Assembly (NCBI GenBank): GCA_030699935.1
Contig: JAUYKS010000002.1
Span: forward strand, 65,018-129,017
Reading direction: 5' to 3'
DNA length: 64,000 bases
From: a bacterium
Lineage (GTDB): Bacteria; Patescibacteriota; SICC01
Both the position numbers and the translations under genes were made by a program. The notes under the pieces are model-generated. The model ran no database searches, was not told the origin of the DNA, and worked only from the letters and a program-made list of their open reading frames with translations. This document shows positions 18,654 through 54,947 of this stretch, one piece after another (within the stretch, counting starts at the first letter, position 1; each line of letters begins with the position of its first letter).

Positions 18654-19088
18654 GTGGCGAAAACATCGACCAACCCGCTGGCCTACGTCGCCTGGACCCA
18701 GGCGCTGCTCGCCACGTCCGGCAGCCTCTACTTCAGCGAAGCCGCCGGATACCTGCCCTGCCTGCTCTGCTGGTACCAACGGATCGCGATGTATCCGCTC
18801 GTGATCATCCTGGCGGTCGGCATCCTGCGCCGCGACAACAAGGTCTATCAATACGTGTTGCCGCTGGCGATTATCGGCGCCCTGATCGCGCTTTATCACG
18901 TCCTGCTCTACTATGGCGTCTTCGCCGAATCCGAGCAGACCTGCCGTGCCGGCGTCTCCTGCACCACCGAATACATCGAGTATCTCGGCTTCATCACGAT
19001 CCCGCTGCTCTCACTCGGTGCCTTCCTGGTGATCATCGCCTGCATGGTGCTACTCTGGAAATCGGTTAGGAAATCCGCCAAGAAATGA
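18654..19088 (+). CDS. bdbC: Disulfide bond formation protein B (BdbC-type)
   Basis: …SGSLYFSEAAGYLPCLLCWYQRIAMYPLV… and …ITIPLLSLGAFLVII… closely follow the Bacillus BdbC pattern. Confidence 0.8.
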   Translation: MAKTSTNPLAYVAWTQALLATSGSLYFSEAAGYLPCLLCWYQRIAMYPLVIILAVGILRRDNKVYQYVLPLAIIGALIALYHVLLYYGVFAESEQTCRAGVSCTTEYIEYLGFITIPLLSLGAFLVIIACMVLLWKSVRKSAKK

Positions 19089-19720
19089 ACACCGAATCGA
19101 AAGTCCTGATCGCCATCGCCGCCGTGATTACCGTCGCGGCCAGCGTTTTGCTGGTGATGGCCGGCGGCAAGGACGATGCCAAGCCGGTCGCCGACCCAGG
19201 CAAGTTGGTCCGCTCCGACTCCATCCAAAGCAACCCGAAGGCCAAGGTCACGCTGGTCGAGTTCGGTGACCTACAGTGCTCGGCTTGCGCTGCGGCCAAT
19301 CCCACCGTGCAGCAGGTCAAGAAGCGTTACGGCGCCAAGATCAACTTCGTCTGGCGGCACTTCCCGCTGAACATCCATCGGAACGCGCTGACCTCAGCTA
19401 ACGCCTCCGAAGCCGCGAACGCACAAGACAAGTTCTTCGCGTTCGCCGACAAGCTGATGGCGACGCAGAGCGCCTGGGGCGAAGCCGGCACCCCCGCCGC
19501 GATCCAACTGTTCGTCTCATACGGCGGCAGCCTCGGAGTCAGCGGTCCGGCGATCGAAAAGGCCGTCAAGGAGCAGCAGTACAAGGCCAAGATATCCAAG
19601 GATTACGCGGACGGCGAGGCGCTCGGCGTGAACTCGACCCCGACCTTCTTCTTGAACGGAAAAAAGGTCGAGACGACGGAACTGCTCAAGGCGGTCGGCG
19701 CCGCGGTCAGCCAGAAGTAA
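19085..19720 (+). CDS. DsbA-family thiol:disulfide oxidoreductase (BdbD-like)
   Basis: Thioredoxin-fold CxxC (CSAC), N-terminal TM anchor; the 5' end overlaps the bdbC 3' end by 4 nt. Confidence 0.75.
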   Translation: MNTESKVLIAIAAVITVAASVLLVMAGGKDDAKPVADPGKLVRSDSIQSNPKAKVTLVEFGDLQCSACAAANPTVQQVKKRYGAKINFVWRHFPLNIHRNALTSANASEAANAQDKFFAFADKLMATQSAWGEAGTPAAIQLFVSYGGSLGVSGPAIEKAVKEQQYKAKISKDYADGEALGVNSTPTFFLNGKKVETTELLKAVGAAVSQK

Positions 19721-19799: not shown

Positions 19800-20594
19800 T
19801 TGATTTCAAGCGCACAGCGTCCACTCAACAGCCTCGGCGCCGAGGGCCTTCTCCAGGAAGACTTCGCCGCCAACTCTACGGGCTACGGAAAAAGTTTGAA
19901 GACTCTTGACCAGATCGCGGAAGAAATCCGCGCCCATAACGGGTGCGGTTTCGAGCCGTGCGAACAGGCGACCAACCTGGTGCCTGGTGAGGGTAACCCG
20001 CAGGCCGACGTCATGTTCATCGGGGAAGCGCCCGGCAAGAACGAGGACCTGCAGGGGCGGCCGTTCGTTGGTGCGGCCGGCAAGCTCCTCGACGAGCTGA
20101 TCGAGTCGATCGGCATGAAGCGGGAAGACGTCTTCATCGGGAACGTCCTGAAGGGTCGTCCGCCGGGGAATCGCGATCCGAAGCCGGAGGAGATCGACCA
20201 TTCCTGGCCGTGGCTGCGCGACCAGATCGCGGCGATCCAGCCCAAGCTGATCGTGCTGCTGGGCCGCCACGCGATGGACTGGTTCCTGCCGGATCTCAAG
20301 ATCTCGGTCGACCACGGCCGGGCCAAGCGGTTCCGCGGGCAGACCTACCTGCCGGTGTATCATCCCGCTGCCGCGCTCTATACGGGCTCACTTCGACAGA
20401 CCCTATTCGATGACTTCGCGCAGATCCCGCAGCTGCTGAAGAAAGTCGATAAGCTGCCGAAGGAGAAGGCCGAGATCGAACCGGTCTTCAAGCTGAAGAT
20501 TCGGAAAGCGCTGGCCCAGAATGCCGGAAAAGAAGACGGCGCTGACGCGCCCGAATCGACAAAGAATACTACTAATCAAGAAAGTTTACTCTGA
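19800..20594 (+). CDS. Uracil-DNA glycosylase, family 4
   Basis: …GEGNPQADVMFIGEAPG…GRPFVGAAGKLL… family-4 UDG motifs. TTG start is uncertain. Confidence 0.8.
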   Translation: MISSAQRPLNSLGAEGLLQEDFAANSTGYGKSLKTLDQIAEEIRAHNGCGFEPCEQATNLVPGEGNPQADVMFIGEAPGKNEDLQGRPFVGAAGKLLDELIESIGMKREDVFIGNVLKGRPPGNRDPKPEEIDHSWPWLRDQIAAIQPKLIVLLGRHAMDWFLPDLKISVDHGRAKRFRGQTYLPVYHPAAALYTGSLRQTLFDDFAQIPQLLKKVDKLPKEKAEIEPVFKLKIRKALAQNAGKEDGADAPESTKNTTNQESLL

Positions 20595-20595
20595 A

Positions 20596-22581
20596 ATGAA
20601 TCAACCAAACCAACCAAACCAATCGAATCAACCTAACCGCCCGAACCGATCGGGACAATCCCGCCCCTCCGGACAACAGGGACAACAGGGAGGACCAGGG
20701 CGCGATAACCGCTCCGGTCGTCCCAACCGCTCCAGCAAGCCGGGCGGACGGGGCAATGCTCCTGGGAACCACCCCGGAAACCGGGGCGGACGCCCCGGCG
20801 GCGGAGGCAGCGGAGGCGGACCCAAGAAACGCCGACGCAACGGACCGCCGCCGAACCGCTCGACCGGGCTGAACCTCAGCCGGGCCGAGATTGACACGAA
20901 GAAACCGGCGCCGCCGGGACCGAATCACCTCCGGATCATCCCGATGGGCGGACTCGGCGAGATCGGCATGAACTGCACCGCGCTGGAGTTCGGCAATGAC
21001 ATTATCGTCATTGATGTCGGCTTCATGTTCCCGGACGAGACGATGCCGGGCGTCGACTACGTCATTCCGGACATCTCGTACCTGGAGGCCCGCAAGGACC
21101 GGATCCGCGGCATCTTCATCACCCACGCGCACCTCGACCACATCGGCGGTGCGCCGTACCTGATCCCGAAACTCGGCTTTCCCCCGGTCTTCGCTACCAA
21201 GCTGGCCGACGGGTTCATCAAGAACCAACTCGAGGAACACAAGCTCGACACCCGCGTGAAAGTCACTCGCTTCAAATTCGACGATCGACTCAAGGCCGGC
21301 GTGTTCACGGTGGAACCGTTCCACGTCAATCACAGCATTCCGGAAGGAGTCGGATTCGCGATTACCACGCCGGTCGGCGTGATTACGACCAGTGGTGACT
21401 TCAAGTTCGACAAGACGCCGATCGCCGACACGCCGGCCGAACTCGAAAAGATCAAACGCATCGGCGAGCGCGGCGTGCTCCTGGCGATGAACGAGTCGAC
21501 GAACATCGAAAAACCGGGTCACACGGTTTCCGAGCTGGAGATTGAAAAAAGCCTGATCGAGCAGATCGGCAAGGCCAAGGGGCGGGTGATCATGTCGACC
21601 TTCTCCTCGTTGGTGGCCCGGATCCAGGAGACCATCGACGCGGCTGACAAGAACGGCCGCAAGGTATCGATCGTCGGACGTTCGATGATCAGGAACGTCG
21701 AGACTTGTCAGCGTCTCGGCTACATGAAGATTCCCAAAGGGATCCTCGTCGACGTCCGCCGGGCCCAGAACATTCCGGACCGGGAGCTCCTGGTGATCTG
21801 CACCGGCTCCCAAGCGACGGAGTACTCGGCCTTGCTCCGGATGTCCTTGGGTGAGCACAAGCAGATCAAGATCAAGCCGAGCGACACGGTGCTGCTCTCC
21901 AGCTCACCGGTACCGGGTAACGAACGGGCAGTGCATTCCATGATGGATGACCTCTTCCGGCAGGGCGCCGACGTGGTGTATTCGAAGGAATACGGCATCT
22001 ATACGTCTGGACACGCTCATCGCGAGGAACTCCGGGAGATGATCCAAATGCTCAAGCCGAAACACTTCATGCCGATCCACGGCGAATACCATAAGCGGGT
22101 GTTGCACGGCCGGTTGGCCAACGAAGAAGGCGTTTCGCCCGCGAACGTCCACCTGATCGATAACGGCAAGGTGCTCGAGGTCCGCGGTCCGGATGACGTC
22201 CGGCTCAGCAAGGAGCGGGTCGGCGGCGGCCTGGTGTTGATAGACGGTCTCGGTGTCGGCGACATCGGCGAAGTGGTGCTGCGGGACCGCAAGCACATGG
22301 CGGAGGACGGCATGGTCGTGGCGATCGTCACGGTCGACCGCCGGAACGGCAAACTGGTCGGCAGTCCGGACATCATTTCCCGCGGCTTCGTCTATCTCAA
22401 GGAGTCCGGGAAACTGATTGGCCAGGCGAGGGACCGTATCCGGAAAATCGCTCAGTCCCAAGGCAACCGACAGCCGGAACGTGACGCGCTGAAGAACAAG
22501 TTGCGGGACGACCTCGGCGACTTCTTTTACGACCAGACGGAACGCCGCCCGATGGTGATCCCGGTCATCATCGAAGTCTGA
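20596..22581 (+). CDS. rnj: Ribonuclease J with ~115-aa N/Q/P/G/R-rich N-terminal extension
   Basis: Metallo-beta-lactamase HAHLDHIGG, beta-CASP and RMMBL regions. Start at MNQPNQPN… just after the UDG stop; the longer in-frame extension from 20521 is rejected. Confidence 0.85.
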   Translation: MNQPNQPNQSNQPNRPNRSGQSRPSGQQGQQGGPGRDNRSGRPNRSSKPGGRGNAPGNHPGNRGGRPGGGGSGGGPKKRRRNGPPPNRSTGLNLSRAEIDTKKPAPPGPNHLRIIPMGGLGEIGMNCTALEFGNDIIVIDVGFMFPDETMPGVDYVIPDISYLEARKDRIRGIFITHAHLDHIGGAPYLIPKLGFPPVFATKLADGFIKNQLEEHKLDTRVKVTRFKFDDRLKAGVFTVEPFHVNHSIPEGVGFAITTPVGVITTSGDFKFDKTPIADTPAELEKIKRIGERGVLLAMNESTNIEKPGHTVSELEIEKSLIEQIGKAKGRVIMSTFSSLVARIQETIDAADKNGRKVSIVGRSMIRNVETCQRLGYMKIPKGILVDVRRAQNIPDRELLVICTGSQATEYSALLRMSLGEHKQIKIKPSDTVLLSSSPVPGNERAVHSMMDDLFRQGADVVYSKEYGIYTSGHAHREELREMIQMLKPKHFMPIHGEYHKRVLHGRLANEEGVSPANVHLIDNGKVLEVRGPDDVRLSKERVGGGLVLIDGLGVGDIGEVVLRDRKHMAEDGMVVAIVTVDRRNGKLVGSPDIISRGFVYLKESGKLIGQARDRIRKIAQSQGNRQPERDALKNKLRDDLGDFFYDQTERRPMVIPVIIEV

Positions 22582-22608: not shown

Positions 22609-24423
22609 TCATTGCGTGACCGGTTCGCACGGGCCGCTGGCCGAATCACAGACCACCTCGCGCCAGCCTCCGACGGCGAAGCTGCCGCCGGGGCCGTTGC
22701 TGAAGTTGATATCGTTCAGGCCGGAGACGTAGGTCACCACCGCGTTGTTGTCCAGCACCAGCCGGTTCGCGGTCAGGGCATTCGCGCCCGCGTTATTGTG
22801 CAGCCGGATCGTCCCCTTCGGCGCGGCCAGGATGATGTTGGTCGCGTTGTTCGAGACGTCGATCGCGTTGTCGGACGTACTGGTGGTCCCGAGCAGCAGG
22901 AAGCTGTTCGGCGTGCCGCTGCCGGTGAAGAGTACGTTGTTGCTGATGGTGACCGTCCCGTCCCCGACGATGACGCCGCTGTCCGCGCCGTAGCCGGGAT
23001 CGAGCACGATGGTCGCGTTGTTCGAGAACAGCATCGTTCCGGTCACATACAGGGTCCCCGTTATCCGCAAGGTGGAGCCGTTCTCGACGGTCAGGTTTCC
23101 GTCGATCTTGAGCGGCCCCATCGTCTGGCTCGTGCCGAGGGCGATCGTCACGTCACCGGTGTACGTTCCGCCCGACGCTCCCTGGGTCTTGAAGTCGATG
23201 ATGTTGGCGTCGGTGATCGGCAAGTCTCGCTGCGGCGGGTCCTCGCTGCCGGGGAAGCTGCTGCCGGCGATCGTGGAACCGTTGTCGGCCTGGAAGTACG
23301 CGTCGCCGCCCACGGTGAGCTGGTTAAGCGTGTTGGCATGGACATCTCCGCCGATGTCGACGCCTTGGGCGTAGGTCGGCGGGCTGCCCATGAACGCTTT
23401 GAACGCGAAGTCCTTACCGACCGGACTCCAGGTCATCGTCCCGCTGCTCCGCCAGCGGTCGGAGCTCTTGCCGGTGCCGTTCGGGTAACCGTTGTCATCG
23501 CCGACGCCCCAGGCCCAGTAGTTCGTCGCGGACCCGGACGTGTCGACGACGATCCAGTACTTCTGGCCGTTCGTCAGGGTCGGAGGGTTCGTCAGGCTGA
23601 CGTCGATGAATTGCAGGGTCGATCCGACCGACGACGCGTTCAGCGTGCCGCCGGCGACCTGCGTCCCAGAAGGTTGGTTGTTGTTGTCGGTGACGATCCG
23701 GATGGTCGCGTTGGCCGGATTGCCGAATTTCTTCACCTTGAGCGCCACCTTGACCAGCTTGCCGCTCTGGGACGTGTCGGCGGTGAACGCTTGGGCGACA
23801 TCGATCACGTTAGGACTGGAAGATTTCCCGAAGATGAAGTCGGTCACCGTGGCCGGATCGTGCTCGGGTGACGCGTCGGGGGCTGCCGTTCCGGCCACCC
23901 AGACGTCTCCCGACACAGAGGCGTTGTTCTCACCCGTGTGGTTGCCGTTGGAATAAGTGCTACCGATGATATCGGCGTTGTTGCCCATGGTAATGCCACC
24001 GGCACCGGCCTGCAGAGCGTATACGAAGTCCGCGTCGACCGACGGCTGCGGGCAGTCGTCGACCTGGATCCGTCGGACCAGCGTGTCATGATAGCCGGAC
24101 GCCATGATCTGGCGGACGTCCTGGCACGATTCCGTGTCGATCGTCTCGACCCTGTATTCGGTGCGGTTCCGGTCGTCGAAGGATGTCTCTACGGTGGCAC
24201 CGCCCGCTCCGAATCCCGGGCTGCGCTTTACCTGCAGCAGGCCGTCCTCGACGCCGCTCTCGGCGTTCACGATGCTCTGCGTCGAATCCAACCGCTCCTG
24301 GCTCTGCTGCATGGAGAGAACGGAAGTGGTCACCATCGCGCTGCCGATCACCACGATGATCGCGGAAAAGATCATCACCCCGAGGATGCCGACGACGCCG
24401 GACTGACCGCGTCCTCTGATCAT
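22609..24423 (-). CDS. Large pilus-associated protein: N-terminal hydrophobic anchor + beta-helix-like repetitive domain (ComGG/PilX-like non-canonical minor pilin or tip adhesin)
   Basis: Last gene of a four-gene operon after three prepilins. N-terminus GQSGVVGILGVMIFSAIIVV lacks Glu5. Long N/T/G-rich pseudo-repeats (…NNATIVLDPG…NNVLFTGSG…NNATNIILAAP…NNAGANALTAN…). Confidence 0.6.
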   Translation of the reverse strand: MIRGRGQSGVVGILGVMIFSAIIVVIGSAMVTTSVLSMQQSQERLDSTQSIVNAESGVEDGLLQVKRSPGFGAGGATVETSFDDRNRTEYRVETIDTESCQDVRQIMASGYHDTLVRRIQVDDCPQPSVDADFVYALQAGAGGITMGNNADIIGSTYSNGNHTGENNASVSGDVWVAGTAAPDASPEHDPATVTDFIFGKSSSPNVIDVAQAFTADTSQSGKLVKVALKVKKFGNPANATIRIVTDNNNQPSGTQVAGGTLNASSVGSTLQFIDVSLTNPPTLTNGQKYWIVVDTSGSATNYWAWGVGDDNGYPNGTGKSSDRWRSSGTMTWSPVGKDFAFKAFMGSPPTYAQGVDIGGDVHANTLNQLTVGGDAYFQADNGSTIAGSSFPGSEDPPQRDLPITDANIIDFKTQGASGGTYTGDVTIALGTSQTMGPLKIDGNLTVENGSTLRITGTLYVTGTMLFSNNATIVLDPGYGADSGVIVGDGTVTISNNVLFTGSGTPNSFLLLGTTSTSDNAIDVSNNATNIILAAPKGTIRLHNNAGANALTANRLVLDNNAVVTYVSGLNDINFSNGPGGSFAVGGWREVVCDSASGPCEPVTQ

Positions 24424-24905
24424 TGCGGCCTCGTCCCTACCGAGATGGATATGTCCGTGGTCTTGGTCCGCCCCGAAGCCGATTTGGAAAGCGTGGCCTT
24501 GAACCGCAGCGTGACCAGAGCCGTCCCGTCGCAGGTTGGGAAGAAGCGGACGCTGGAGGCGCTGGTGCCCGGCGACAACAGGTTCTCGGCGGTGCCGCCT
24601 TTGACGAATTCGATCTGCGCCCCGTTACGTTGGTAGGTCACGGCTCCGCCGGGAGCGGCCAAGGTGATCTGGTCTACGCTTTCGACGTTGCAGACGGAGC
24701 CTCCCGACACCCCAGTGGTTTCCGCGACCGTCCGTCCCAGGTGGGCGGTCACCCGGTCCGACTCGCGCTGCAGGCTCTGGACCAGCCGGTCGTCGACTTG
24801 CTGTCGGATGACCGTCACATAAAGCGTCCCGGCCGCCACGATCAGCAGGATGAATATCGAGATTGCGACCAGCAGTTCGATCAGCGTGAAGCCGGATTCC
24901 TTCAT
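24420..24905 (-). CDS. Type IV (pseudo)pilin with prepilin-peptidase motif
   Basis: MKESG^FTLIELLVAISIF… has the G/FTLIE motif with Glu+5. ATGA coupling. Confidence 0.7.
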   Translation of the reverse strand: MKESGFTLIELLVAISIFILLIVAAGTLYVTVIRQQVDDRLVQSLQRESDRVTAHLGRTVAETTGVSGGSVCNVESVDQITLAAPGGAVTYQRNGAQIEFVKGGTAENLLSPGTSASSVRFFPTCDGTALVTLRFKATLSKSASGRTKTTDISISVGTRPQ

Positions 24906-25417
24906 TGCCAGTCCGTCAGGTAACCGAATACGCTGCGCGATTTGTCCTGATTGCCCTGCTGCCAAGTCACCGTCACCGTGACCTTCTTCGTCTCTGGGTC
25001 CTCGAAGCTGCCGCAGGTCGCGCCCTGGCAGATCTTGTCTCCCGCGGACAGCGCGCCGTTACCGTCCGTATCGCTGCGCCGGACGGACGCGATGGTGACC
25101 CGGCGGGTGAACGTCCCCAGCGTCTCGCTGCCGGCTTGCAGGGCCCACGGCGGGTTGGTGCCGGGTTGGGCCGAGAGGCCGTAGGTACCGTCGGTGGCGA
25201 TCGCGTCCCAGTCGTCGTCCCGGATGACGCGGACCGCGTCCATGCCTTCTTTGAGGTGGCCGCCGACCGTGACCAAATCCGCGCCGTAGTCCGAGGTGGA
25301 CCTGGCGACCAGGACGACCTGGATCATCCCCACGACCCCGATTACGAATACGGAGATCGCGACGACCGCTTCCATCAGGGTGAACCCGCGTTCGCGCTGG
25401 CGTTGGCTACTCCTCAT
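24902..25417 (-). CDS. Type IV (pseudo)pilin
   Basis: …RERG^FTLMEAVVAISVFVIG… class III signal. Confidence 0.7.
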   Translation of the reverse strand: MRSSQRQRERGFTLMEAVVAISVFVIGVVGMIQVVLVARSTSDYGADLVTVGGHLKEGMDAVRVIRDDDWDAIATDGTYGLSAQPGTNPPWALQAGSETLGTFTRRVTIASVRRSDTDGNGALSAGDKICQGATCGSFEDPETKKVTVTVTWQQGNQDKSRSVFGYLTDWQ

Positions 25418-25889
25418 GGATTCCTCCGTTCGGGTCGACCTTCAGGGTCCGGGTCCGGTCGGGATCGGTCAGGGTCAGCGTGAGCGTGGCCTGGCTGCTA
25501 CCCTTGGTGCGGCCGGTGATGCGCTGGAAGACGATGCGGTCCGACGACGGGCTGATTTCCACGCCCATCGCGGCGACCCGGAAAGTCTCGGACCTGATTT
25601 TCCCGGCGAAGCCGGATTCGCAGGGATCGGCGGTCGAGTCGCTCGGGATGGAGAAGGAGGTCCAGCCGCCGGACGCGAAGCACATGCCGAATTCCTCGTT
25701 ACCCTTGGCCGCCCGGGCGTCGGATTGGAGAGACCGCAGGTTGGCGGTCAGTTCGTCGAAGTCCTGTCCGAACTTGGCGGGACGGTCGCCGCCGGTCATG
25801 CTGAACGCGATCGCTACCACGACCGCGATGATCGCCATGACCACGACGACCTCGACTACGGTATACCCCCGATTGCGCGTTCCGATCAT
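25407..25889 (-). CDS. Type IV (pseudo)pilin
   Basis: …NRG^YTVVEVVVVMAIIAVV… class III signal. Confidence 0.7.
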   Translation of the reverse strand: MIGTRNRGYTVVEVVVVMAIIAVVVAIAFSMTGGDRPAKFGQDFDELTANLRSLQSDARAAKGNEEFGMCFASGGWTSFSIPSDSTADPCESGFAGKIRSETFRVAAMGVEISPSSDRIVFQRITGRTKGSSQATLTLTLTDPDRTRTLKVDPNGGIHEE

Positions 25890-25970
25890 TTGTTTTCGTT
25901 CATCCGTTTTCGTCCCAAGTATATGCGAGTTTGCGCCCGTGCGAAGCCGGTCACCCTTATACTGATAGCC

Positions 25971-27785
25971 ATGGGTTCAAATCAGGAAAACATCCGCAAT
26001 TTCTGCATCATCGCGCATATCGACCACGGCAAGTCCACGCTGGCCGACCGGCTGCTCGAGCTGACCGGCACGGTCCAGAAGCGCGACATGCAGGATCAGC
26101 TGCTGGACTCGATGGAACTCGAGCGGGAACGCGGCATCACGATCAAGCTCCAGCCGGTGACGATGCAGTGGACCCCGAAGGCCGCCGGATCGGACGCTCC
26201 GCTGACGATGAACCTGATCGACACGCCGGGGCACGTCGACTTCTCTTACGAGGTCTCGCGGACGTTGTCGGCTTGCGAGGGGGCGCTGCTGCTGGTCGAC
26301 GCCACGCAAGGCATCCAAGCCCAGACGCTGGCCCACGCGACGCAGGCGAAGGCGCAGGGGCTCACGCTGATTCCCGTTATCAACAAGATCGACCTGCCGG
26401 CCGCCGAACCGGAGGACACCGCCCTGGCGATCGCCGAGACGTTGGAGATTTCCGCGGACGACGTGATCTTCATCTCGGCCAAGACCGGCGAGGGCGTGGA
26501 CGAGGTCCTGCAGGCGATCGGGGATCGTGTTCCCGCGCCGGAAGGCCAGGCCGGTGCGCCGCTCCGGGCGTTGGTATTCGACTCGCGTTACGATCCGTAC
26601 CAGGGCGTGGTCGCCTCAGTTCGGGTGGTCGACGGCTCGTTGCCGGCCCGCTCGAAGATCAAGCTGATGGCGGTCGGAAAGTCGGCGGAGTCGAACGACG
26701 TCGGCGTGCTGCGGCCGCAGCCGGAGGCGCGACCGCAGCTGGAAACCGGCGAGATCGGCTACCTGGTCACGGGATTCAAGTCGATCGTCGAAGTCCGGGT
26801 CGGCGACACGGTGACGCTGGCGGCGGAGCCGGCCGGCGAGCCGCTGCCCGGCTACCGCGAAGTCTCACCGATGGTGTTCGCCGGAATCTTCCTGGAGTCG
26901 TCCGGCGGCGACTTCGGCAAGCTCCGCGAAGCGCTCGGCAAGCTGGCGCTCAACGACGCCTCGCTCAGCTACGAGCCGGTGCAGTCGCAGGCGCTCGGCC
27001 AAGGCTTCCGGGCCGGCTTCCTCGGGCTGCTCCACCTCGACATCATCCGCGAGCGGCTGACGCGCGAATTCAATCTGAACCTGGTGGTTACCGCGCCGAC
27101 GGTACCGTACGAGATTCGGCTGACCGATGGCAGCGAGCTCACCCTGACCGACCCGGCCGAGCTGCCGGACGTGACCCGGATCGCCGAGATCCGCGAGCCC
27201 TGGGCGGAGTTGGAGATCGTCTGCCGGTCGCAGGACCTCGGCGCCGTCCAGCGGCTGATTGCCGACCGACGCGGCACGTTCGGCGACACGCGGTTCGCCG
27301 CTTCCGAGCGAGTGATCGTCAAGGCGGAAGTCCCGCTCGCCAACCTGGTCGCCGACTTCTACGATCAGCTCAAGGGAGCGACCGCCGGATACGGGTCGCT
27401 CTCATACGAACTCACCGACTTCCGTCCGGCCCCGTTAGTCCGCCTGGACTTCCTGGTCGCGGGCGACGCGGTCTCCGGACTCTCGGTAATCGTCCACAAG
27501 AGCGAAAGCGACCGCCGGTCGCGGGCGGTGTTGGCAAAACTCAAGGAGGTCATCCCGCCGGCGATGTTCCAGATCGCCTTACAAGCGGTCGTCGGCGGAA
27601 AGGTGTTGGCCCGCGAGGACATCAGCGCCCGCAAGAAGGACGTGACCGCCGGGCTGTACGGCGGCGACGTCACCCGGAAGCGCAAGCTTCAGGAGAAGCA
27701 GAAGAAGGGCAAGGCCCGAATGAAGTCCGAAGGCAGCGTGCGCGTGCCGCCGGAGGCGTTCGTGGCGGTGCTCAAGCAGGACTGA
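25971..27785 (+). CDS. lepA: Elongation factor 4 (LepA)
   Basis: NFCIIAHIDHGKSTLADRLL… GTPase G1-G4 motifs, LepA C-terminal domain. Start at Met226 of the listed ORF; the upstream extension is rejected. Confidence 0.95.
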   Translation: MGSNQENIRNFCIIAHIDHGKSTLADRLLELTGTVQKRDMQDQLLDSMELERERGITIKLQPVTMQWTPKAAGSDAPLTMNLIDTPGHVDFSYEVSRTLSACEGALLLVDATQGIQAQTLAHATQAKAQGLTLIPVINKIDLPAAEPEDTALAIAETLEISADDVIFISAKTGEGVDEVLQAIGDRVPAPEGQAGAPLRALVFDSRYDPYQGVVASVRVVDGSLPARSKIKLMAVGKSAESNDVGVLRPQPEARPQLETGEIGYLVTGFKSIVEVRVGDTVTLAAEPAGEPLPGYREVSPMVFAGIFLESSGGDFGKLREALGKLALNDASLSYEPVQSQALGQGFRAGFLGLLHLDIIRERLTREFNLNLVVTAPTVPYEIRLTDGSELTLTDPAELPDVTRIAEIREPWAELEIVCRSQDLGAVQRLIADRRGTFGDTRFAASERVIVKAEVPLANLVADFYDQLKGATAGYGSLSYELTDFRPAPLVRLDFLVAGDAVSGLSVIVHKSESDRRSRAVLAKLKEVIPPAMFQIALQAVVGGKVLAREDISARKKDVTAGLYGGDVTRKRKLQEKQKKGKARMKSEGSVRVPPEAFVAVLKQD

Positions 27786-38522: not shown

Positions 38523-38579
38523 GCGTCCAGGATACCAAGGAAGTGCCATATAATTATGGGTACGCAACGGCACCCAGTC

Positions 38580-38626
38580 TTGACAAAGTGCCCAAAATTT
38601 GCTATGTTAAGGCAATTTTCAAAGAT
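38580..38626 (+). promoter_or_regulatory. Conserved promoter block, copy B: TTGACA-N17-TATGTT + aaggcaattttcaaa leader, 18 nt before ATG 38627
   Basis: Same architecture as copies A, C and D. Confidence 0.55.
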
Positions 38627-41600
38627 ATGAACACGGGCATCACACATAAGGTAATCCTCGCGGCGGTAGTCGCGGCAGCGGGCGCGGTCATGGTAACGGC
38701 GCTCAGCCAAACGGCGTCGGACCCTTACGTCGCGAAGTCGCCGCCCGCCCCCCAAGCCGGCAAGGAAATCCGGAGCTTGACCAAGGTGAGCGGCCATTCG
38801 CTTGAGACGGTCAAGCTGAAGGACGGCAAGGAAACCAAGGCGGCCGCCGGGCATCTGGTGGTCCGCTTGGAGAATGACGCCGCCAAGCGGCAATTCGGGG
38901 ACCGGTTGACCGGGACCAGCATTCCGAATATCTATCTGTTGTCCGTCGACGAACCGGTCAGCCAGGCCCGCACCAAGGTCGCGGCGCTGCCGGGAGTGCG
39001 GAGCGCCACGCCGGACTTCGTCGTCGCGGCGACCCGCACGCCCGACGATCCGCACTACCCGTACCAGTGGGGACTGCCGAAGATCAAGGCGCCAGCCGCC
39101 TGGGACCGGACGGTCGGTTCTTCGTCCGTCATCATCGCCAGCATCGACACCGGGGTGAACGCCTCGCACCAGGACCTCTCCGGCAAGATGTGGACGAACC
39201 CGGGCGAGACCTGCGGCGACAACGATGACGACGACGGGAACGGCTACATCGACGACTGTAACGGCATGGACTTCGTGAACGGGACCAAGCCGGGCGGCGT
39301 CTTCAAGAACGACGCCAACGGCCCGGACGACGATCAAGGTCACGGGACGCTGACGTCGTCGGTCTTCGCGGCTGACACTGACAACGGCCTTGGCGTTGCC
39401 GGCGTCGATTGGAACGCGAAGGTATTGGCGATCAAGGTATTGGACTCCGACGGCTACGGGTTATTTTCCGACGTCGCGGAGGGAATCCGGTACGCTGGCA
39501 TAGTCGGCGCGGACGTCGCCAACATGAGCCTCGGCGCGGACGGACTGACCACCGAGACGATGACCGACACGGCGATCAACGAAGCGATCGCGGACGGCGT
39601 CATCCTAGCCGCCGCTTCCGGTAACGATGGTTACACGAACTCCATCAACTATCCGGCGATCAACCCGTACGTGATCTCGGTCGGGGCCACTACCTCGACC
39701 GACGCGCGAGCCGGCTATTCGAACGGCGGTTCGCAGCTCGACCTGGTCGCGCCAGGGTCGGGCATCCGCGGCGCCTACCTCGGCAACACGAGCTACGTCT
39801 CGGCCTCCGGCACCTCGCTGTCCACGCCGCACGTCGCGGGCGTGGCGGGATTGCTCCGAGCGCTGGACCCGGACGTCAGCTACTCCCGAGTCCGGACGAT
39901 CCTGAAGAGCACCGCCGATACCGTCTCCGGCATGAACGGAGCCACCCGCACCAACCTCTACGGCGAGGGCCGGCTCGATGCGAACGGCGCCCAATCCCTG
40001 ATCAAGGCCTACTCCAGCGAATGGGTCCGGCAGTCCGCGACCGCGACCGCGGCATCCGGAACCGACCGCGCGGTCTACGTCGACTACAAGAACGTCGGCC
40101 TGAACCCCTGGTCGAATACCGGATCGAACCCGGTCCGTCTCGGGACCAGCCACACCAAGGGGCATTCATCCCAGTTCTACAACACGTCCTGGCTGAGCAA
40201 GAGCCGTCCGGCCAGCTTCACGGGACGGGTCGAAGGCGACGGCAGCGTCACCGAGACCGACACCATTCAGCCCGGCGAGACGGCGCGGTTCAGCTTCACG
40301 ATGACCTCGCCGCCGCGGACGACCACCACGACGTTGCGCGAGTACTTCCAACCGGTCGTCGAAGGCGTGACCTGGCTCGAAGACCAGTCGAAGTACATCA
40401 CGACGACGGTACCGGGGCGGTACTACCGCGGCCAGTTGGTCGGGAAGACCAATCCGCCGCCGGTGGTCCTGGCAAACCAGCTCAGTCCGGTGACCGCCGA
40501 CGTGAAGAACACCGGCACCGCCACCTGGCGGAACGATACCTCCTACGACATGAGGCTCGGTACGGTCAATCCGGTAAGCCACAACAGCACGTGGTACGAC
40601 AGCGGTACCTGGCTGACGCGAAACCGGCTCGGCACGTTCGTCGGCAAGGTGTCGGGAGGCGTACTCACGCCGACTAATTCCATCGCTCCCGGCGAGACCG
40701 CCCGATGGTCGTTCCAAGTGAAGGCACCGTCCCGCGGCGGCACGTATCATGAATACTTCAGTTCGCTGATCGACTACTTCGGTTGGCAGAAGAACCTTAA
40801 CCTTGGTTGGACCCAGTTCGTGCCGAGCACCGCGTATGATTACAAGTTCGTAAGCAAGGCACCGCACTACCAGTACCTGGCCCGCGACGAGACGAAGACG
40901 ATCTACATCCGGCTCCGGAACATGGGATACGCCACCTGGCGCTCCAGCGGATCGGGTTCCGTCCGGCTCGGAACCGATCGTCCGCAGAACCGCGGCAGCG
41001 GATTCTCGGACGGCGGTACGGCGGCCGGCTGGATTACCAGCAACCGGATCAAGCTGGGCAGCAACCTGACGGATGCCGACAAGAACGTCGGCGGGGAAAC
41101 CAGCGTGGCGCCCGGCGAGATCGGTGAATTCGAGTTCGACATCGTCGGCAAGCCGCGATCGGGAACGTACAAGGAGTACTTCCGGCCTCTCGTCGAAGGC
41201 CGCGGCTGGATGAAGGACATCGGCATCAACTGGTCGATCACGGTGGAGAACCCGATCGACGTCGCGCTGACCAGCCAGTCCAGCGCGACCATGAGCGGCA
41301 CGAACACGGTTACGATCGTGGATGTGAACGGGACGAACCGCGGTACCGTCGCGCCCGCGACGGACTTCATTATGCGCAAGAACGGATCGCGCTATCAGGT
41401 ACTCCTGCCCGGCCCGGACATCGACTCCTGTTGCGTCCTGACGGCCCAGCAGGCGCCGGGCAACCGGTTCCTGGTGACGAACCTGGCTGACAACGGCAGC
41501 CAAAACTACTTCCGGGGCGAGATGTCGATCCGGACCGGCAGCGCCGGTACCCATCTGGTGAATTCCCCGAACCTCGAGCATTACTTGCGCGGCCTGGGCG

Positions 41601-42387: not shown

Positions 42388-43767
42388 ATGAAGCAACCAG
42401 CCTTAATGTTGGCGCTGGGAGTGATCGTCGGCGTGGCCGCGGCGTCCTGGCTGCCGGTATGGTTGGCGCTCGGGTTGGCGGCCGTTGCGTGCTACCGGTC
42501 GCTTCTGCTGGCAATCGGCCTGGCGATCGGCGCTTACCGGATCATGCTGAGCCCACTCCTGCCCCCGGAAGCGGACTTGGCGGACCTTGCCGGGCGGGAA
42601 CGGACGGTGCGCGGGGTGGTAGACTCGTTCCCGGATTATCGGCAGGAATACCAGCAGTTCGTCGTCAAAGGGACGGCGGAGGGCAAAGAGGGCAGGACGC
42701 TGGTCCAGACCGACCCCTTGCTCGAGTTCTCGCCAGGCGACCGCGTCGAGGTGACCGGCCTGCTGACCGCGCCGCGCAACTTCGACGGTTTCGACTATCG
42801 GAGCTTCCTGGCCAAGGACGGCGTCCACTCGATCATGCGCCGGGCCGACGTCAACATCGCAGGAAGCAAACAAACGCTGGCGCGGACTTTTTACGCGATC
42901 CGGAAGCGCTGGGTGCTGCAGACGGAACGTACGTTCCCCGAGCCGGCCGCCGGGTTCAGCCTGGGTATCCTGATCGGCGAACGCTCGACGTTGTCCGACT
43001 CCCATATCGAGGCGTTCCGGAAGACCGGCACGACCCACATCCTGGCGCTGTCCGGATTCAACGTCAGTATCATCATCACGGCGATCGTCTGGGTGCTCGG
43101 ACGGAAGCCGGCGGCGCTGACCGCGTCCCTGGGACTGATTGCGGCATTCGTCCTTCTGGTCGGTCCGTCCGCGACGGTGGTACGAGCCGCGCTGATGGGC
43201 GGCTTCCTCCTGCTCGGACAACTTTTTGGACGTCCGCAGGCGGCCATGTACGGCGCGGTGATCACGGCCGCCGCGATGCTGTTGATCCAACCCCACGCTT
43301 TGCGCTATGACCTCGGTTTTGACCTCTCCTTCCTCGCCACCCTCGGCATCCTCTGGCTGGAGCCGGACATCCGCTCCCGGATCACGCGCGTCCCCGAGCT
43401 GGCCCGTGGAATCGTATCCGCGACGCTTGCCGCCAGCGGGGCGACGGCGCCGCTGATCGCGCTGACGTTCGGGACGGCCAGCCTGGTGTCGCCGCTGGCG
43501 AACCTGCTGGTGGTCCCGGCGATTCCTCTCCTGATGCTCGGCGGTTTCGTCAGCGTGATGATCTCGTTCGTTTCGTCCGAGTTGGCCGCCTTGCCGGCGG
43601 CGTTGACCGCCGCCGCGACCGTCCGTCTGCTCGGCGGAATCAGTTGGCTGGCCGACCTGCCGGCCGCCTCGGTCACGTTCGCGGAGCTGAAGGGACCCAC
43701 GGCGATCCTGCTGTCGGTGGTCGCCGCCGCCGGGATCTTCCAATTGAAACGGCCACGGTATGCGTAA
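42388..43767 (+). CDS. comEC: ComEC/Rec2 DNA internalisation channel, competence (membrane) domain only
   Basis: …HILALSGFNVSIIITAIVWVLG… competence-domain signature and many TM helices. Confidence 0.8.
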   Translation: MKQPALMLALGVIVGVAAASWLPVWLALGLAAVACYRSLLLAIGLAIGAYRIMLSPLLPPEADLADLAGRERTVRGVVDSFPDYRQEYQQFVVKGTAEGKEGRTLVQTDPLLEFSPGDRVEVTGLLTAPRNFDGFDYRSFLAKDGVHSIMRRADVNIAGSKQTLARTFYAIRKRWVLQTERTFPEPAAGFSLGILIGERSTLSDSHIEAFRKTGTTHILALSGFNVSIIITAIVWVLGRKPAALTASLGLIAAFVLLVGPSATVVRAALMGGFLLLGQLFGRPQAAMYGAVITAAAMLLIQPHALRYDLGFDLSFLATLGILWLEPDIRSRITRVPELARGIVSATLAASGATAPLIALTFGTASLVSPLANLLVVPAIPLLMLGGFVSVMISFVSSELAALPAALTAAATVRLLGGISWLADLPAASVTFAELKGPTAILLSVVAAAGIFQLKRPRYA

Positions 43768-44653
43768 GGCGGCCTACACGCTCGCGTTGGTTCCGCTGCT
43801 CGCCATCGTCTTAGCCGCCGTCTTCCTATCGTGGCCCGGCACCGGCACCGGCTTCAGCTCTGGCACCGGCTTCGGCGCTCCCGAGGCCCGGGTGTATTTT
43901 TTCGACGTCGGGCAAGGGGACGCGGCGCTGATCGACGTCGGACACGGGACGCAGATCCTGATCGACGGCGGTCCCGACCGGGCGGTCCTGCGCGGGCTCG
44001 GCGAAATCATGCCGAGGTTCGACCGCCGGATCGAGTTGGTCATCCTGAGCCATCCTCACCTCGACCACTACGGCGGCCTGATCGATACCGTGTCCCGGTA
44101 CGACGTCGGAGCGGTGATGCTCAACCAATCCGGATCAGGCAAGCCGTACGAACGGCTGGTCGAGGACGTACGGGCCGGCAGCCGGATCATTCCGGCCGCG
44201 GGTCAGCGTATCCCGCTGCCCGGAGGCGTGATCGAAATCTTGGAACCCGGCGTGCCGGGGACGGACTCCGCGAACCGGAAGCGGTTCTCCAATCCCAACG
44301 ACGCGTCGGTGGTCGCGCGCCTCGAGCTGCACGGGCACACTTTCCTGTTTCCCGGCGACGCCGAAGAAGCCGAAGAACGCCGTTTGCTCAGAAGCGGCGG
44401 CTTGGACGTCGAGGTACTGAAGGTCCCGCATCACGGCAGCAGCACCTCATCGACGGAAGAATTCCTCCAGGCCGTCACCCCGGATTGGTGCATCGTCTCG
44501 TCCGGCAAGGATAACCCGTACGGACATCCGAATCCGGGGACCTTGTCCAGGTTGGAAACCGCGGGTTGCCGGACCGTCCGGACGGACCGGCACGGGACGA
44601 TCACGTTCCGGCTGACCGGATCGCAGATGCGGGTAGTGCCACAGCGCCGTTAG
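43760..44653 (+). CDS. ComEC C-terminal metallo-beta-lactamase domain as a separate ORF with its own N-terminal TM helix
   Basis: …VYFFDVGQGDAALID…HPHLDHYGG…KVPHHGSS… MBL motifs. 8-nt overlap (ATGCGTAA) with the upstream ORF. Confidence 0.75.
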   Translation: MRKAAYTLALVPLLAIVLAAVFLSWPGTGTGFSSGTGFGAPEARVYFFDVGQGDAALIDVGHGTQILIDGGPDRAVLRGLGEIMPRFDRRIELVILSHPHLDHYGGLIDTVSRYDVGAVMLNQSGSGKPYERLVEDVRAGSRIIPAAGQRIPLPGGVIEILEPGVPGTDSANRKRFSNPNDASVVARLELHGHTFLFPGDAEEAEERRLLRSGGLDVEVLKVPHHGSSTSSTEEFLQAVTPDWCIVSSGKDNPYGHPNPGTLSRLETAGCRTVRTDRHGTITFRLTGSQMRVVPQRR

Positions 44654-47226: not shown

Positions 47227-48423
47227 TCAATCCGCCCCAAGCACCTTGGCGACCAGGGTGAGGTCGTCGCGGACCAGACGCGGCATCAGGAACTTTTCCT
47301 CGACGATCTTCCGTCCGGCGGTGCCCATCCGCTTTGCCTTGGCCGGGTCGGCTGCCAGCTCCGCCATCCGGTCGGCGGCCTTCGGGATCGTCGAGACGAG
47401 GTAGCCGTTCCGGCCTTCCTCGATCTGCAGGGGTATGCCGCCGACGTTGCTGGCGATGACCGGCGTGCCGGCCCACAGCGCCTCGGTGACGGACAGCCCG
47501 AATCCTTCCCGCAGCGACTTCTGGACCGCCGCGACCGCCAAGGTCTGGAACGCCTTCACGGTCCGGTCGTCGGCTTCGTCGACCAGGATCAGCAGGCCGT
47601 CGTCGCCCTTGGCGGCTCCGCGCAGTTCCTTGACGATCATCGGTGCTTGCGGATCGTCGTCGGCGGTGTCGCCGACCAGGGCCAGCTGGAGTTCGGGCAC
47701 CTTCTGTTTGGCCAGCCGCCAGGCCTCGAGCACCCCCAGCGGATCCTTCCACTGGTCGAACCGCGATACCTGCACGACGAACGGCCGCGACAAATCGAGC
47801 GGGTAGGCGCGCAGAATCTCCTGCGCCTCGTCCTTGTCCATCGGACGGTTCTTCTTCGAATCGGCGTCGATCGCCGGCGGGATAATCGCCAGGTGCTCCG
47901 GCGAGAATCCCGGCAACCGGAACGACTCCAGGCTGAAGATGCCGCCAGCATAAGGCAGCAGGTACTTGGCCATCCGGTTCGCGACCCCGCCGTGCGGATC
48001 CGAGCTGTCGAGATGACAGCGCCAGATCCACTTGGTATCCGAAGCGTCGACCCGGAAGTACGGGATCGCCGCCGGCTGCGGATCGTGGACGATGATCGCG
48101 TCCCACTGGGCCGGGGCCACCTTCTTGGCCATGTCCTTGCTGACCGCCTCGTAGTATCGCCATTCGGTAGGAGAGAGGCCGGTGTGTTCGCCCTGCAGGG
48201 CGTTGTGGATCTTCTTCGTGACCTCGAAGAACCCGGCCGGCGGTTCAATCACCTGCCAGTCGGCCTTGATCCCGAGGTCCTGCAGCATCGGCACCTCGGA
48301 ACGCAGGATTTCCGCCACCCCGCCGCCGTTGGCAGTGGCGCTCAGGTGGAGGATACGCTGGCCTCGGAGCGCATCGGTCAGGCCTTTGATTTCGGTGTCC
48401 AACGATTTCACTTCGTTCATCAT
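47227..48423 (-). CDS. GT4 glycosyltransferase, TreT (trehalose glycosyltransferring synthase)-like
   Basis: N-terminal …SATANGGGVAEIL…WQVIE…FFEVTKKIHNALQG… resembles the TreT family. C-terminal GT1/GT4 fold. Confidence 0.6.
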   Translation of the reverse strand: MMNEVKSLDTEIKGLTDALRGQRILHLSATANGGGVAEILRSEVPMLQDLGIKADWQVIEPPAGFFEVTKKIHNALQGEHTGLSPTEWRYYEAVSKDMAKKVAPAQWDAIIVHDPQPAAIPYFRVDASDTKWIWRCHLDSSDPHGGVANRMAKYLLPYAGGIFSLESFRLPGFSPEHLAIIPPAIDADSKKNRPMDKDEAQEILRAYPLDLSRPFVVQVSRFDQWKDPLGVLEAWRLAKQKVPELQLALVGDTADDDPQAPMIVKELRGAAKGDDGLLILVDEADDRTVKAFQTLAVAAVQKSLREGFGLSVTEALWAGTPVIASNVGGIPLQIEEGRNGYLVSTIPKAADRMAELAADPAKAKRMGTAGRKIVEEKFLMPRLVRDDLTLVAKVLGAD

Positions 48424-48503
48424 AGAGGACTATTGGCGCTGGGCTTAGCCGAAGGTCGGCGGCATCGCTTGCTGGGCGTACGCCGTTACAGTTAACTGAA
48501 ACC

Positions 48504-51381: not shown

Positions 51382-51411
51382 TCAAACCACCGCCATACGA
51401 TAACTCCGTTA

Positions 51412-51912: not shown

Positions 51913-51974
51913 ATCAGTAGTCGGCAGAAGCGAGTAGAATATGAGTGTGGCTGAGAAAAACCCAGTATCCCTCA

Positions 51975-54946: not shown

Positions 54947-54947
54947 C

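Follow-up and report, generated by a model that had tools for sequence, protein, structure and literature searches.

The stretch of DNA analyzed here (the window), from an ultra-small bacterium of the Patescibacteria (CPR), is 64 kb long and carries on its minus strand, at positions 22609-25889, four coupled genes, three that encode prepilins followed by one that encodes a protein of 604 residues. Gene 1 (25407..25889) specifies a GspH/FimU-like minor prepilin of 160 residues with the leader MIGTRNRG^YTVVE, gene 2 (24902..25417) a PilV/GspI-like minor prepilin of 171 residues (leader ...QRERG^FTLME), and gene 3 (24420..24905) a minor prepilin of 161 residues (leader MKESG^FTLIE) that is weakly GspJ/PilW-like. 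Gene 4 (22609..24423) encodes the 604-residue protein, a putative modular cap pilin that is ComZ-like and is assigned to the GspK/PilX slot. The true start of gene 3 is the ATG at 24905, as opposed to the TTG at 24965 in a mechanical list of open reading frames. Translational coupling, which had been predicted, is borne out by start/stop overlaps of 11 nt between genes 1 and 2 (ATGAGGAGTAG) and of 4 nt each (ATGA) between genes 2 and 3 and genes 3 and 4. A promoter-like site (TTCGCA-16-TATACT; 25918..25945, minus strand) precedes gene 1 by 29 nt, within the spacer divergent to lepA, but the evidence from the consensus scan is weak, with three such sites in the region where shuffled sequences would give 0.6. 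The operon is followed, 28 nt downstream, by a convergent RNase J gene in place of any PilY1-like gene.

Prepilin genes and other pilus genes of the window

All three upstream genes carry the class III prepilin signature (short basic leader to a Gly, [FYM]-T-L-x-E, hydrophobic helix of ~20 residues), and the original prediction of leaders of this class holds, with G^YTVVE, G^FTLME and G^FTLIE present and matches of genes 1, 2 and 3 to Pfam N_methyl (PF07963) at 29.5, 25.3 and 27.8 bits, all above the gathering score of 21.2 bits. The first gene also has the match that marks an H subunit, scoring 27.1 bits against Pfam GspH (PF12019; gathering score 21), and it matches TIGR01708 GspH at E 2e-6. 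Its orthologs in two relatives (L001 and L089) likewise match both the N_methyl and GspH Pfam models, and it aligns with the position -3 pilin group over 146 columns (hhalign probability 99.3%). Gene 2 matches TIGR02523 PilV over its full length (E 2.2e-4; 21.7 bits, under the curated cut-off of 52.2) and is homologous, also full length, to a conserved position -2 pilin of ~130 residues in other Patescibacteria (hhalign 97%, 118 columns), where 17 of 30 such pilins match PilV (best 1.4e-10) and 8 of 30 match GspI. The match of gene 3 to TIGR01711 GspJ (E 7e-6) covers the N-terminal 58 residues only and is under the cut-off, a profile search against PDB sequences returned generic pilin helices only, and hhalign with the position -1 pilin family of relatives was confined to the helix, leaving the globular part unmatched. 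Members of that family match GspJ (6/30), PRK10557 (9/30) and Verru_Chthon cassette protein C (6/30, best 1.4e-10).

Further pilus and competence genes that had been placed at 55.8 and 42.4 kb were confirmed by Pfam matches. PilN (55785-56429, plus strand; 25.6 bits) and PilO (56426-57058, plus strand; 37.1 bits), both above gathering and 30 kb from the operon, are alignment-complex genes of the same machinery. ComEC is present as two overlapping open reading frames (42388..44653, plus strand) with DUF4131 and Competence followed by a metallo-beta-lactamase domain (first frame 42388-43767, Competence PF03772, E 3.7e-48; Lactamase_B, E 1.1e-15), and it could be the downstream partner of the operon if the pilus captures DNA. 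No PilB, PilT, PilC, PilD, PilM or major pilin gene was found within the 64-kb window, and the remaining pilus machinery is therefore assumed from relatives.

Domains of the 604-residue protein

The product of gene 4 begins MIRGRGQSG-VVGILGVMIFSAIIVV... and has, as was originally noted, a hydrophobic N-terminus that lacks Glu5. Its short polar and basic leader (residues 1-9; 24397..24423, minus strand) ends at Gly9, at a putative prepilin peptidase site (G^VVGIL), and in an alignment of 53 sequences this glycine is invariant among the members with a residue in that column. The family leader follows the pattern [KRQ]-x-G^[QVA]xx[LI][LI], Glu5 being absent across the aligned family, and gene 4 would be cleaved, in the manner of a prepilin, after Gly9. 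Neither the Pfam nor the NCBIfam N_methyl models match gene 4, where VVGIL follows Gly9 and Glu5 is missing. The leader is followed by a pilin module (residues 10-128; 24040..24396, minus strand). AlphaFold models (pLDDT 87.5 and 89.5) predict a 60-residue pilin helix (residues 8-67) packed on a sheet of four antiparallel strands (residues 76-123), for which the closest solved folds are GspI and GspK, the tip pseudopilins of type II secretion. Structure prediction of the protein alone, which had been proposed as a check, accordingly gave a pilin-like N-terminus. Since the subunit that caps tip complexes lacks Glu5 (PMC10191384), the absence of this residue from gene 4 is the exception expected of K-type cap subunits, and gene 4 combines the properties that define a K subunit, namely a pilin fold, no Glu5, an extra domain and the last place in the operon.

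The remainder of the protein is modeled as a beta-solenoid in two parts, the first (residues 129-203; 23815..24039, minus strand) made of short-strand coils with pLDDT 88-96 and the second (residues 347-580; 22684..23385, minus strand) containing a flanking helix (405-416) and NNAT/NNAG pseudo-repeats. The N/T/G-rich pseudo-repeats recognized earlier lie at residues 468-553, within high-confidence short-strand solenoid coils of the AlphaFold2 model. A beta-helix of ~550 residues had been suggested from them, and the solenoid stands, but not as a single domain, as the protein has a pilin head and a two-part solenoid with an inserted beta-sandwich. A C-terminal tail (residues 581-604 with the stop codon; 22609..22683, minus strand) has two short strands at pLDDT 50-64 and a Cys592/Cys599 pair that is clade-specific (8/53 members). 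By structure comparison the solenoid is of the ice-binding-protein type and matches ice-binding-fold proteins and ComZ. Identity with ice-binding proteins themselves was rejected, as no DUF3494 match was found in the 53 family members and the likeness is one of fold only, and the protein is not a PilY1/PilC tip adhesin, its model being without a propeller and the protein having a pilin module.

The inserted sandwich (residues 204-346; 23386..23814, minus strand) had no place in the earlier reading of the sequence. It matches the NCBIfam choice-of-anchor R model (NF041539) over residues 204-338 with 50.8 bits (cut-off 30), and the identical protein of the metagenome-assembled genome is named by NCBI "choice-of-anchor R domain-containing". 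Its structural neighbors are carbohydrate-binding modules and lectins. The aromatic residues of the sandwich are invariant and include the cluster Y289/W290/W332, and a strip of Lys and Arg is conserved (K225 94%, K231 85%, K232 100%, R242 91%).

Phage baseplate and tail-spike proteins are also among the top matches of the sandwich, and Foldseek returned weak similarity to depolymerases and tailspikes of phages (7vul, 4ru5), to pectin methylesterase and to glycoside hydrolases. These would fit a tip-borne enzyme, a tailspike-like depolymerase or lyase that opens the capsule or wall of a host, or the cell's own wall or S-layer, for passage of the pilus. This is improbable in view of the strong matches, which involve solenoids that are not enzymes (ice-binding proteins, ComZ, tapirin, bactofilin), compared with probabilities of 0.07-0.18 for the depolymerases, and no hydrolase or lyase family in Pfam or NCBIfam and no catalytic constellation was identified.

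Conservation of the locus and comparison with known tip subunits

Nearly all Patescibacteria have type IV pili, one of the few surface machines that they have in common, and cultivated Saccharibacteria cannot live on their hosts without them (PMC10633639, PMC12206443). The gene 4 family comprises 1,612 clusters at 50% identity with members of about 600 residues, and all matches with a source name are from Patescibacteria, in groundwater, sediment and many other habitats. Prepilin genes lie directly upstream on the same strand as the gene 4 homolog in 77 of 82 related loci, so the arrangement of the operon is not due to chance; of the five other loci, three are truncated by the end of a contig, one is a solitary second copy, and in the last the pilins escaped the search pattern because they have Ala at position -1. 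Pilin genes directly precede the homolog in 80 species loci, often within complete PilB-T-C-D…PilM-N-O clusters, and PilM-N-O follow it in 52 of 82, as in the Daviesbacteria-type layout PilB-PilT-PilC-pilin-PilD-pilins-[gene 4 homolog]-PilM-N-O. The search for homologs of the large module in relatives, a further check that had been proposed, was thus successful, and the tie to type IV pilus genes is conserved across the Patescibacteria.

This synteny bears on the view that gene 4 encodes a surface adhesin, anchored in the membrane or secreted through Sec, that adjoins the pilins by chance and whose N-terminus is a signal peptide or anchor. Such a protein would explain the lack of an N_methyl motif and of Glu5, and choice-of-anchor R occurs, to judge from the NCBIfam name only, in surface proteins that are anchored in many different ways. 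The hydrophobic stretch, however, runs into one long helix on a four-stranded sheet with GspI and GspK as best matches, the Gly at position -1 is invariant, the gene overlaps the preceding pilin gene by ATGA, and practically all loci with upstream sequence have it immediately behind pilins, making a chance neighbor most unlikely, about as much so as a tip-borne enzyme.

Among known systems the closest in design is ComZ of Thermus thermophilus (PDB 6QVI). This GspK-like pilin carries an ice-binding-type solenoid, its gene follows pilA1-pilA2-pilA3, its binding partner is the GspI-like PilA2, and a tip location has been argued for it (PMC6561018). Like gene 4, comZ is a fourth gene after three minor-pilin genes and has a non-canonical leader missed by pilin finders, and both products are modeled or solved as a GspK-like pilin module with a large triangular beta-solenoid whose bulk allows a tip position only. 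Gene 4 differs by the additional choice-of-anchor R sandwich within its solenoid, and may differ in the placement of the solenoid, which in ComZ lies inside the pilin sheet and in the gene 4 model follows all four strands (76-123), with a low-confidence tail (587-601) behind it. A further difference is the organism, here a monoderm-like Patescibacterium, and for gene 4 DNA binding is a candidate function. No N_methyl, T2SSK or ComZ signature was detected in the gene 4 sequence: the family profile retrieved nothing at E <= 10 from all PDB chain sequences, Pfam T2SSK and NCBIfam GspK models did not match gene 4, and PilX_N was matched at E < 0.1 by only 5 of 53 family members. With GspK/XcpX/PilX, gene 4 shares the last place in an operon of H-I-J-K order, the absence of Glu5, a large extra domain and an expected I-J-K cap, but the extra domain of GspK is alpha-helical and inserted in the sheet, in contrast to the beta-solenoid and sandwich found here. 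The design of K-type pilin plus ice-binding-type solenoid is not restricted to Thermus but has a counterpart, at the level of fold and with no detectable sequence homology, across a major bacterial radiation.

Within the Patescibacteria, PilX1 of Nanosynbacter lyticus TM7x (TM7x_00475; PMC12206443) is similarly the largest pilin and the last in a row of pilins, in the essential T4P-1 locus, carries a lectin-like beta-jelly-roll, is a proposed tip protein and is not predicted as a PilD substrate (PMC12206443). A TM7x-type pilX1 was recovered by means of a published primer sequence (L087:2692-3846, 384 residues; PMC12206443), and its N-terminal helix (...RQSG^AVSLFAV...) aligns with the gene 4 family (hhalign E 4e-5, 61 columns). 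It has only 384 residues and no solenoid, and membership of gene 4 in the PilX1 family was rejected, as BLASTP and hhalign align residues ~5-67 only and the jelly-roll is not shared; PilX1 occupies the same slot with a different module. In Streptococcus sanguinis, likewise a monoderm setting, the modular tip pilins PilB and PilC are small pilins with an adhesive graft, a vWA and a lectin module respectively (PMC8179133, PMC9934059), but their class III signal peptides are canonical and include Glu5, the modules are other ones and there is no sequence relation. Tapirins of Caldicellulosiruptor (PDB 6N2C, 4WA0) share the solenoid fold, but are cellulose-binding proteins with no pilin module, are not pilins, and have no sequence similarity to gene 4.

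Proposed tip complex and its ligand

The four genes probably encode the initiation or tip complex of a type IV pilus, the patescibacterial counterpart of GspH-I-J-K and FimU-PilV-W-X, in which gene 4 provides a cap in the GspK/PilX slot with a ligand-binding module. Co-transcription and translational coupling would yield the four subunits together, and the prepilin peptidase, encoded outside the window, would cleave each after its leader Gly, whereupon the PilC/PilMNO platform could support assembly of the four hydrophobic helices within the membrane. The 604-residue protein, with its GspI/K-class pilin module, would be the K-slot subunit and could only sit on top because, without Glu5, no subunit above it needs a charge neutralized. 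The major pilin would then polymerize beneath and push the complex outward, leaving the 604-residue protein to cap the filament and display a module of ~470 residues, an ice-binding-type beta-solenoid as in Thermus ComZ with the inserted carbohydrate-binding-module-like sandwich, that would bind the target of the pilus. Given PilT in the clusters of relatives, retraction would bring cell and target together by pulling either one towards the other. Against this reading as a whole stand the GspJ assignment of gene 3, which depends on the N-terminal helix only, the machinery genes missing from the window, the lack of N_methyl, T2SSK and ComZ signatures in gene 4, and the case of TM7x, where the analogous PilX1 is no predicted PilD substrate (PMC12206443). 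The pilin fold, synteny and leader support the original prediction of a non-canonical pilin of PilX/ComGG type with a large module in the tip or priming complex, although the tip position and the formation of a complex with the pilins are inferred. The module had also been called novel, but its novelty is relative, as the design is that of Thermus ComZ (PMC6561018) and of modular tip pilins (PMC8179133), and the protein already bears an NCBI label. A domain map is now available for a very large family that NCBI had named from its domain only, and the family would now be tied to the cap position of the pilus.

As ligand we favor, at a little under even chances, a glycan of the host-cell surface or an anionic wall polymer. 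The carbohydrate-binding-module and lectin neighbors of the modeled sandwich and its invariant aromatic residues suggest a glycan, as does, by analogy, the solenoid fold of the tapirin adhesins, and lectin-bearing tip pilins have precedents in S. sanguinis PilC (PMC9934059) and TM7x PilX1/PilX2 (PMC12206443). Less likely, but to be taken seriously, is a DNA receptor of ComZ type, which has the same architecture and differs in the ligand alone; here the tip module would bind extracellular dsDNA and retraction would bring it to ComEC, for transformation or for nucleotide scavenging by a bacterium unable to make nucleotides. ComZ, the closest solved pilin of this design and gene position, binds DNA (PMC6561018), ComEC is encoded in the window, Patescibacteria are naturally competent via ComEC (PMC10633639), lineages with different hosts share a well-conserved module, and the sandwich has its conserved strip of K225, K231, K232 and R242. 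The globular part of gene 4, however, is strongly acidic (net -24, pI 4.4; family median -11), the fold neighbors of the sandwich bind glycans rather than DNA, and gene 4 has no sequence homology to ComZ, whose DNA-contact lysines could not be placed on it. In Southlakia, moreover, comEC is dispensable but pilus genes are essential (PMC10633639), and pili must therefore do more than take up DNA.

The accessory module is 36-46% identical between classes compared with 17% for the pilin part, and between distant clades the most conserved segment is residues 129-203 (46%; pilin module 17%). As the module is the more conserved part, an adhesin specific for one host is disfavored and a universal ligand fits better. 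The family might even be an ancestral tip module of the Patescibacteria, a ComZ-like receptor for a universal polyanionic ligand, perhaps environmental DNA, with TM7x PilX1 and PilX2 as later host-recognition replacements, a scenario that we regard as rather unlikely, slightly more so than a DNA receptor as such. If DNA were the universal ligand, the tip module would represent the long-sought first step by which organisms incapable of nucleotide synthesis acquire nucleotides and DNA. The target of the patescibacterial pilus becomes directly testable with one recombinant protein, in which the residues to mutate are the aromatic Y289, W290 and W332 and the basic K225, K231, K232 and R242.

Operon layout and the three small prepilins

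The four minus-strand genes overlap at their successive stops and starts by ATGAGGAGTAG (11 nt), ATGA and ATGA, so that the original prediction was right in calling them translationally coupled, and their sequence indicates that they are probably co-transcribed. Gene 1 (25889-25407, 160 aa) begins MIGTRNRG^YTVVEVVVVMAII, where the caret marks the putative prepilin cleavage point, gene 2 (25417-24902, 171 aa) begins MRSSQRQRERG^FTLMEAVVAISVF, gene 3 (161 aa) begins MKESG^FTLIELLVAISIF if read from the ATG at 24905, which was preferred to the TTG at 24965 of a mechanical ORF list, and gene 4 (24423-22609, 604 aa) begins MIRGRGQSGVVGILGVMIFSAIIVVIGSAMV. The operon is flanked on one side by the convergent gene for RNase J (20521-22581) and on the other by a divergent ORF (25296-27785) that contains LepA, and a promoter-like site is weakly indicated at 25945-25918. 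Long spurious ORFs opposite the operon are due to the 63% G+C content of the window.

Genes 1, 2 and 3 all pass the Pfam gathering score for the prepilin N-terminal methylation motif. Gene 1 also exceeds that for GspH, gene 2 aligns over its full length with TIGR02523 PilV at a sub-threshold score, and the GspJ match of gene 3 is confined to its helix. Positional orthologues were sought in 84 loci with a gene 4 homologue, among the pilin ORFs that immediately precede it and are numbered from it as positions -1 and -2. Full-length homology (hhalign 97%) was found between gene 2 and the pilins of ∼130 aa at position -2, of which 17 of 30 match PilV (best 1.4e-10) and 8 of 30 match GspI. At position -1 a minority of the pilins, here of ∼186 aa, match GspJ, PRK10557 and Verru_Chthon cassette protein C, and gene 3 resembles this group in the helix only. 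Profile searches of PDB sequences with both upstream pilin families gave nothing past generic pilin helices. Based on these family matches and positional comparisons, the H-I-J order of the core minor pilins is well supported for gene 1 as H and reasonably supported for gene 2 as I, and weakly so for gene 3 as J.

Family and predicted fold of the 604-residue protein

The large module singled out in the original prediction belongs to a very large, uncharacterised family, each named member of which is from a Patescibacterium. An identical protein is present in an NCBI MAG (129.8-kb contig), a word-indexed search found 140 homologues, mostly of 570-620 aa, with Daviesbacteria, Sungbacteria and Paceibacterota as named sources, and an exhaustive search of 50%-identity representatives yielded 1,612 clusters at E <= 1e-3, of which 499 reach E <= 1e-30. 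No paper describing the family was found in the literature, nor did a full-text search for 'choice-of-anchor R' retrieve one. In seven members of 780-1,004 aa (P0039, P0065 and P0082, and the representatives P0122, P0162, P0205 and P0212) the homologous region begins only at residue ∼350-750, so the module also occurs behind longer N-terminal parts, and one such protein has an additional Laminin_G_3 domain.

The AlphaFold2 model (pLDDT 87.5, pTM 0.78, from a 53-sequence alignment) predicts a GspI/K-class pilin fold carrying a large exposed module. A helix (residues 8-67) leads into an antiparallel four-stranded sheet (76-123). Coils built of short strands (129-200) come next, then a sandwich with longer strands (204-346), further coils (350-575) that include one helix (405-416), and finally a tail modelled with low confidence. 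The N-terminus is modelled as a pilin helix, in keeping with the original prediction, and its 60 residues of continuous helix argue against a Sec signal peptide, an outcome that would have counted against that prediction. In the same alignment the Gly that precedes the hydrophobic stretch does not vary among the members with a residue in that column, two members beginning downstream of it, and the +5 residue is Leu, Ile or Val and never Glu. The family therefore has a conserved cleavage-site Gly and no Glu5, with a putative prepilin-peptidase site, and five members reach Pfam PilX_N. A PilY1-like identity was rejected since there is no propeller. An ice-binding function was also rejected, as the likeness is one of fold only, DUF3494 in Pfam is not matched by the family, and members also occur outside cold habitats.

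Invariant residues of the family are Y289, W290, W332, D338 and F341, and a basic strip is conserved on the 222-246 hairpin (K225 94%, K231 85%, K232 100%, R242 91%). With K342, this Lys/Arg strip is encoded at 23650-23760 (residues 222-246) and 23398-23400 (residue 342), and the peptide [LI]NK[VI]x[LI]K[LI]KK ranks among the top two motifs by conservation in the Daviesbacteria-type sequences that served as query for the locus scan. The globular remainder of the protein is strongly acidic (net charge -24, pI 4.4; family median -11). Two Cys pairs are specific to the clade of gene 4: C100/C124, present in 12 of the 53 members, and C592/C599, present in 8. A DsbB/DsbA-like pair (18654-19720, plus strand), which may be the source of their disulfides, lies 3 kb from the operon in a neighborhood also kept in the related locus L089.

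A close parallel is ComZ of Thermus (PMC6561018). Its GspK-like pilin domain carries a triangular beta-solenoid, which can be superposed on the ice-binding protein FfIBP; its gene adjoins pilA1-pilA2-pilA3, and PilFind misses the protein. ComZ binds dsDNA and, among its pilin neighbors, only the GspI-like PilA2, and its bulk leaves the tip as the only possible site (PMC6561018). The two proteins are alike in fold, gene position and non-canonical leader. The parallel has no support in sequence, however, as a profile of the gene 4 family matched no PDB chain at E <= 10, and gene 4 differs from ComZ by its inserted lectin-like domain. A full-text search for ComZ together with Patescibacteria returned only irrelevant papers. 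By model and analogy, gene 4 would thus be a modular tip pilin in the K slot, of ComZ-like build with a lectin-like domain inserted.

The second comparison is with PilX1, the largest pilin of Nanosynbacter lyticus TM7x, which is encoded last in the row of pilin genes at the essential T4P-1 locus, has a lectin-like jelly-roll and is without a predicted PilD signal (PMC12206443). A TM7x-type pilX1 was obtained from metagenome contigs by means of the gene-specific part of a published primer, and encodes 384 aa with the N-terminus MGRDMRQSG^AVSLFAVIF. Its alignment with the gene 4 family is limited to ∼65 N-terminal residues (hhalign E 4e-5; BLASTP E 0.004). The two have the same slot and the same kind of helix but different modules. 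With the N-terminal helix alone in common, identity with TM7x PilX1 is ruled out and the gene 4 family is not the one already described.

Pilus genes in the window and in relatives

LepA and RNase J also flank this set of four genes in the nearest relatives (61-79% identity). A relative with 34% identity has the homologue within a complete cluster that begins with PilB, PilT, PilC, a pilin, PilD and further pilins and continues with three prepilin-motif ORFs without a recorded Pfam match, the homologue, PilM and two ORFs that are PilN/PilO-like by position. When one genome per species was scanned, with 16 Daviesbacteria-type sequences of the alignment as query, 80 loci were retrieved, with titles from Daviesbacteria, Kaiserbacteria, Doudnabacteria, Taylorbacteria, Curtissbacteria, Paceibacterota and Saccharibacteria. 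By analysis of ORFs and motifs, 77 of 82 loci have same-strand prepilin ORFs immediately before the homologue, and 52 of 82 have PilM-N-O immediately after it. Of the five loci without such prepilin ORFs, three end with the contig, one has pilins with Ala as residue -1 of the leader, and one is a second, solitary copy. Adjacency to pilin and pilus-machine genes is essentially obligatory for the family. The operon originally predicted is real, and its interpretation is supported. A type II secretion pseudopilus was rejected, as PilT and PilM-N-O in the clusters of relatives speak against it and, as regards a secretin, so does the general nature of Patescibacteria envelopes.

Two MAGs have two family copies each (L072 and L075 in CAYYQK01; L062 and L037 in JACPKP01). 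In one of them each copy is preceded by its own ∼122-aa and ∼180-aa pilins, and in the other one copy lies in a pilus cluster and one is solitary, which suggests alternative tip complexes. Many related MAG contigs (L005-L066) are titled 'uncultured Gammaproteobacteria bacterium' and others 'uncultured Saccharibacteria'. Their gene content fits Daviesbacteria-type clusters and their nearest named relatives are Daviesbacteria/Patescibacteria, so these deposited taxonomy labels look unreliable and were given no weight.

Within the 64-kb window, phmmer searches with Daviesbacteria queries found no counterpart of PilB, PilT, PilC, PilD or PilM, and no major pilin was detected; the pilus genes are thus scattered here, unlike in Daviesbacteria-type relatives. 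PilN/PilO are 30 kb from the operon and ComEC is 18 kb from it. PilN-PilO (region 54446-57058) have no PilM beside them, with YebC and RuvC upstream on the opposite strand. The start of a 388-aa predicted membrane protein (57055-58221, plus strand), which has a Pro/Ser-rich C-terminus and no Pfam match, overlaps the PilO stop, and the protein may act in the pilus alignment complex of this lineage as a component not yet characterised. ComEC (42388-44653, plus strand) is found as two ORFs with an 8-nt overlap, one (42388-43767) with DUF4131 and Competence domains and the other (43760-44653) with the metallo-beta-lactamase domain. The split could be genuine, or could come from a frameshift or from an error in sequencing.

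Proposed role at the pilus tip and candidate ligands

According to the GspHIJK, PilVWX and ComZ-PilA2 paradigm, the four subunits would make up the complex from which filament assembly starts, with gene 4 on top and ending as the cap, and its module would be the business end of the pilus. The principle of a modular tip pilin is already known; what counts is a widespread family that would be located where episymbionts touch the outside world, and whose function is now testable with one recombinant protein.

The leading, though tentative, candidate ligand is a glycan or anionic wall polymer. The sandwich fold neighbors, the aromatic cluster and a solenoid like those of tapirin and autotransporter adhesins point to glycan by model and analogy, as do the precedents of S. 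sanguinis PilC (PMC9934059) and of TM7x PilX1/X2 with inhibition by rhamnose (PMC12206443). DNA is a less likely ligand, suggested by the parallel with ComZ, the presence of ComEC, the conserved basic strip, and a conservation between classes that is higher for the module (36-46%) than for the pilin part (17%), which argues for a universal rather than a host-specific ligand, but the strong net negative charge is against non-specific DNA binding. Binding of glycan and of DNA are not mutually exclusive and may coexist. That the cap is an enzyme is improbable, and a purely structural cap is equally so.

Two further features of the window may concern the cell surface. A 1,259-aa protein (38543-42322, plus strand) with subtilase S8, Ig-like and SpoIID (lytic transglycosylase-type) domains could be a surface enzyme acting on the host cell wall. 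The G+C content falls to 0.50 at 50001-52000, compared to the window mean of ∼0.63, and since this dip adjoins a run of glycosyltransferase genes (47227-50620) it may be a horizontally acquired surface-glycan island.
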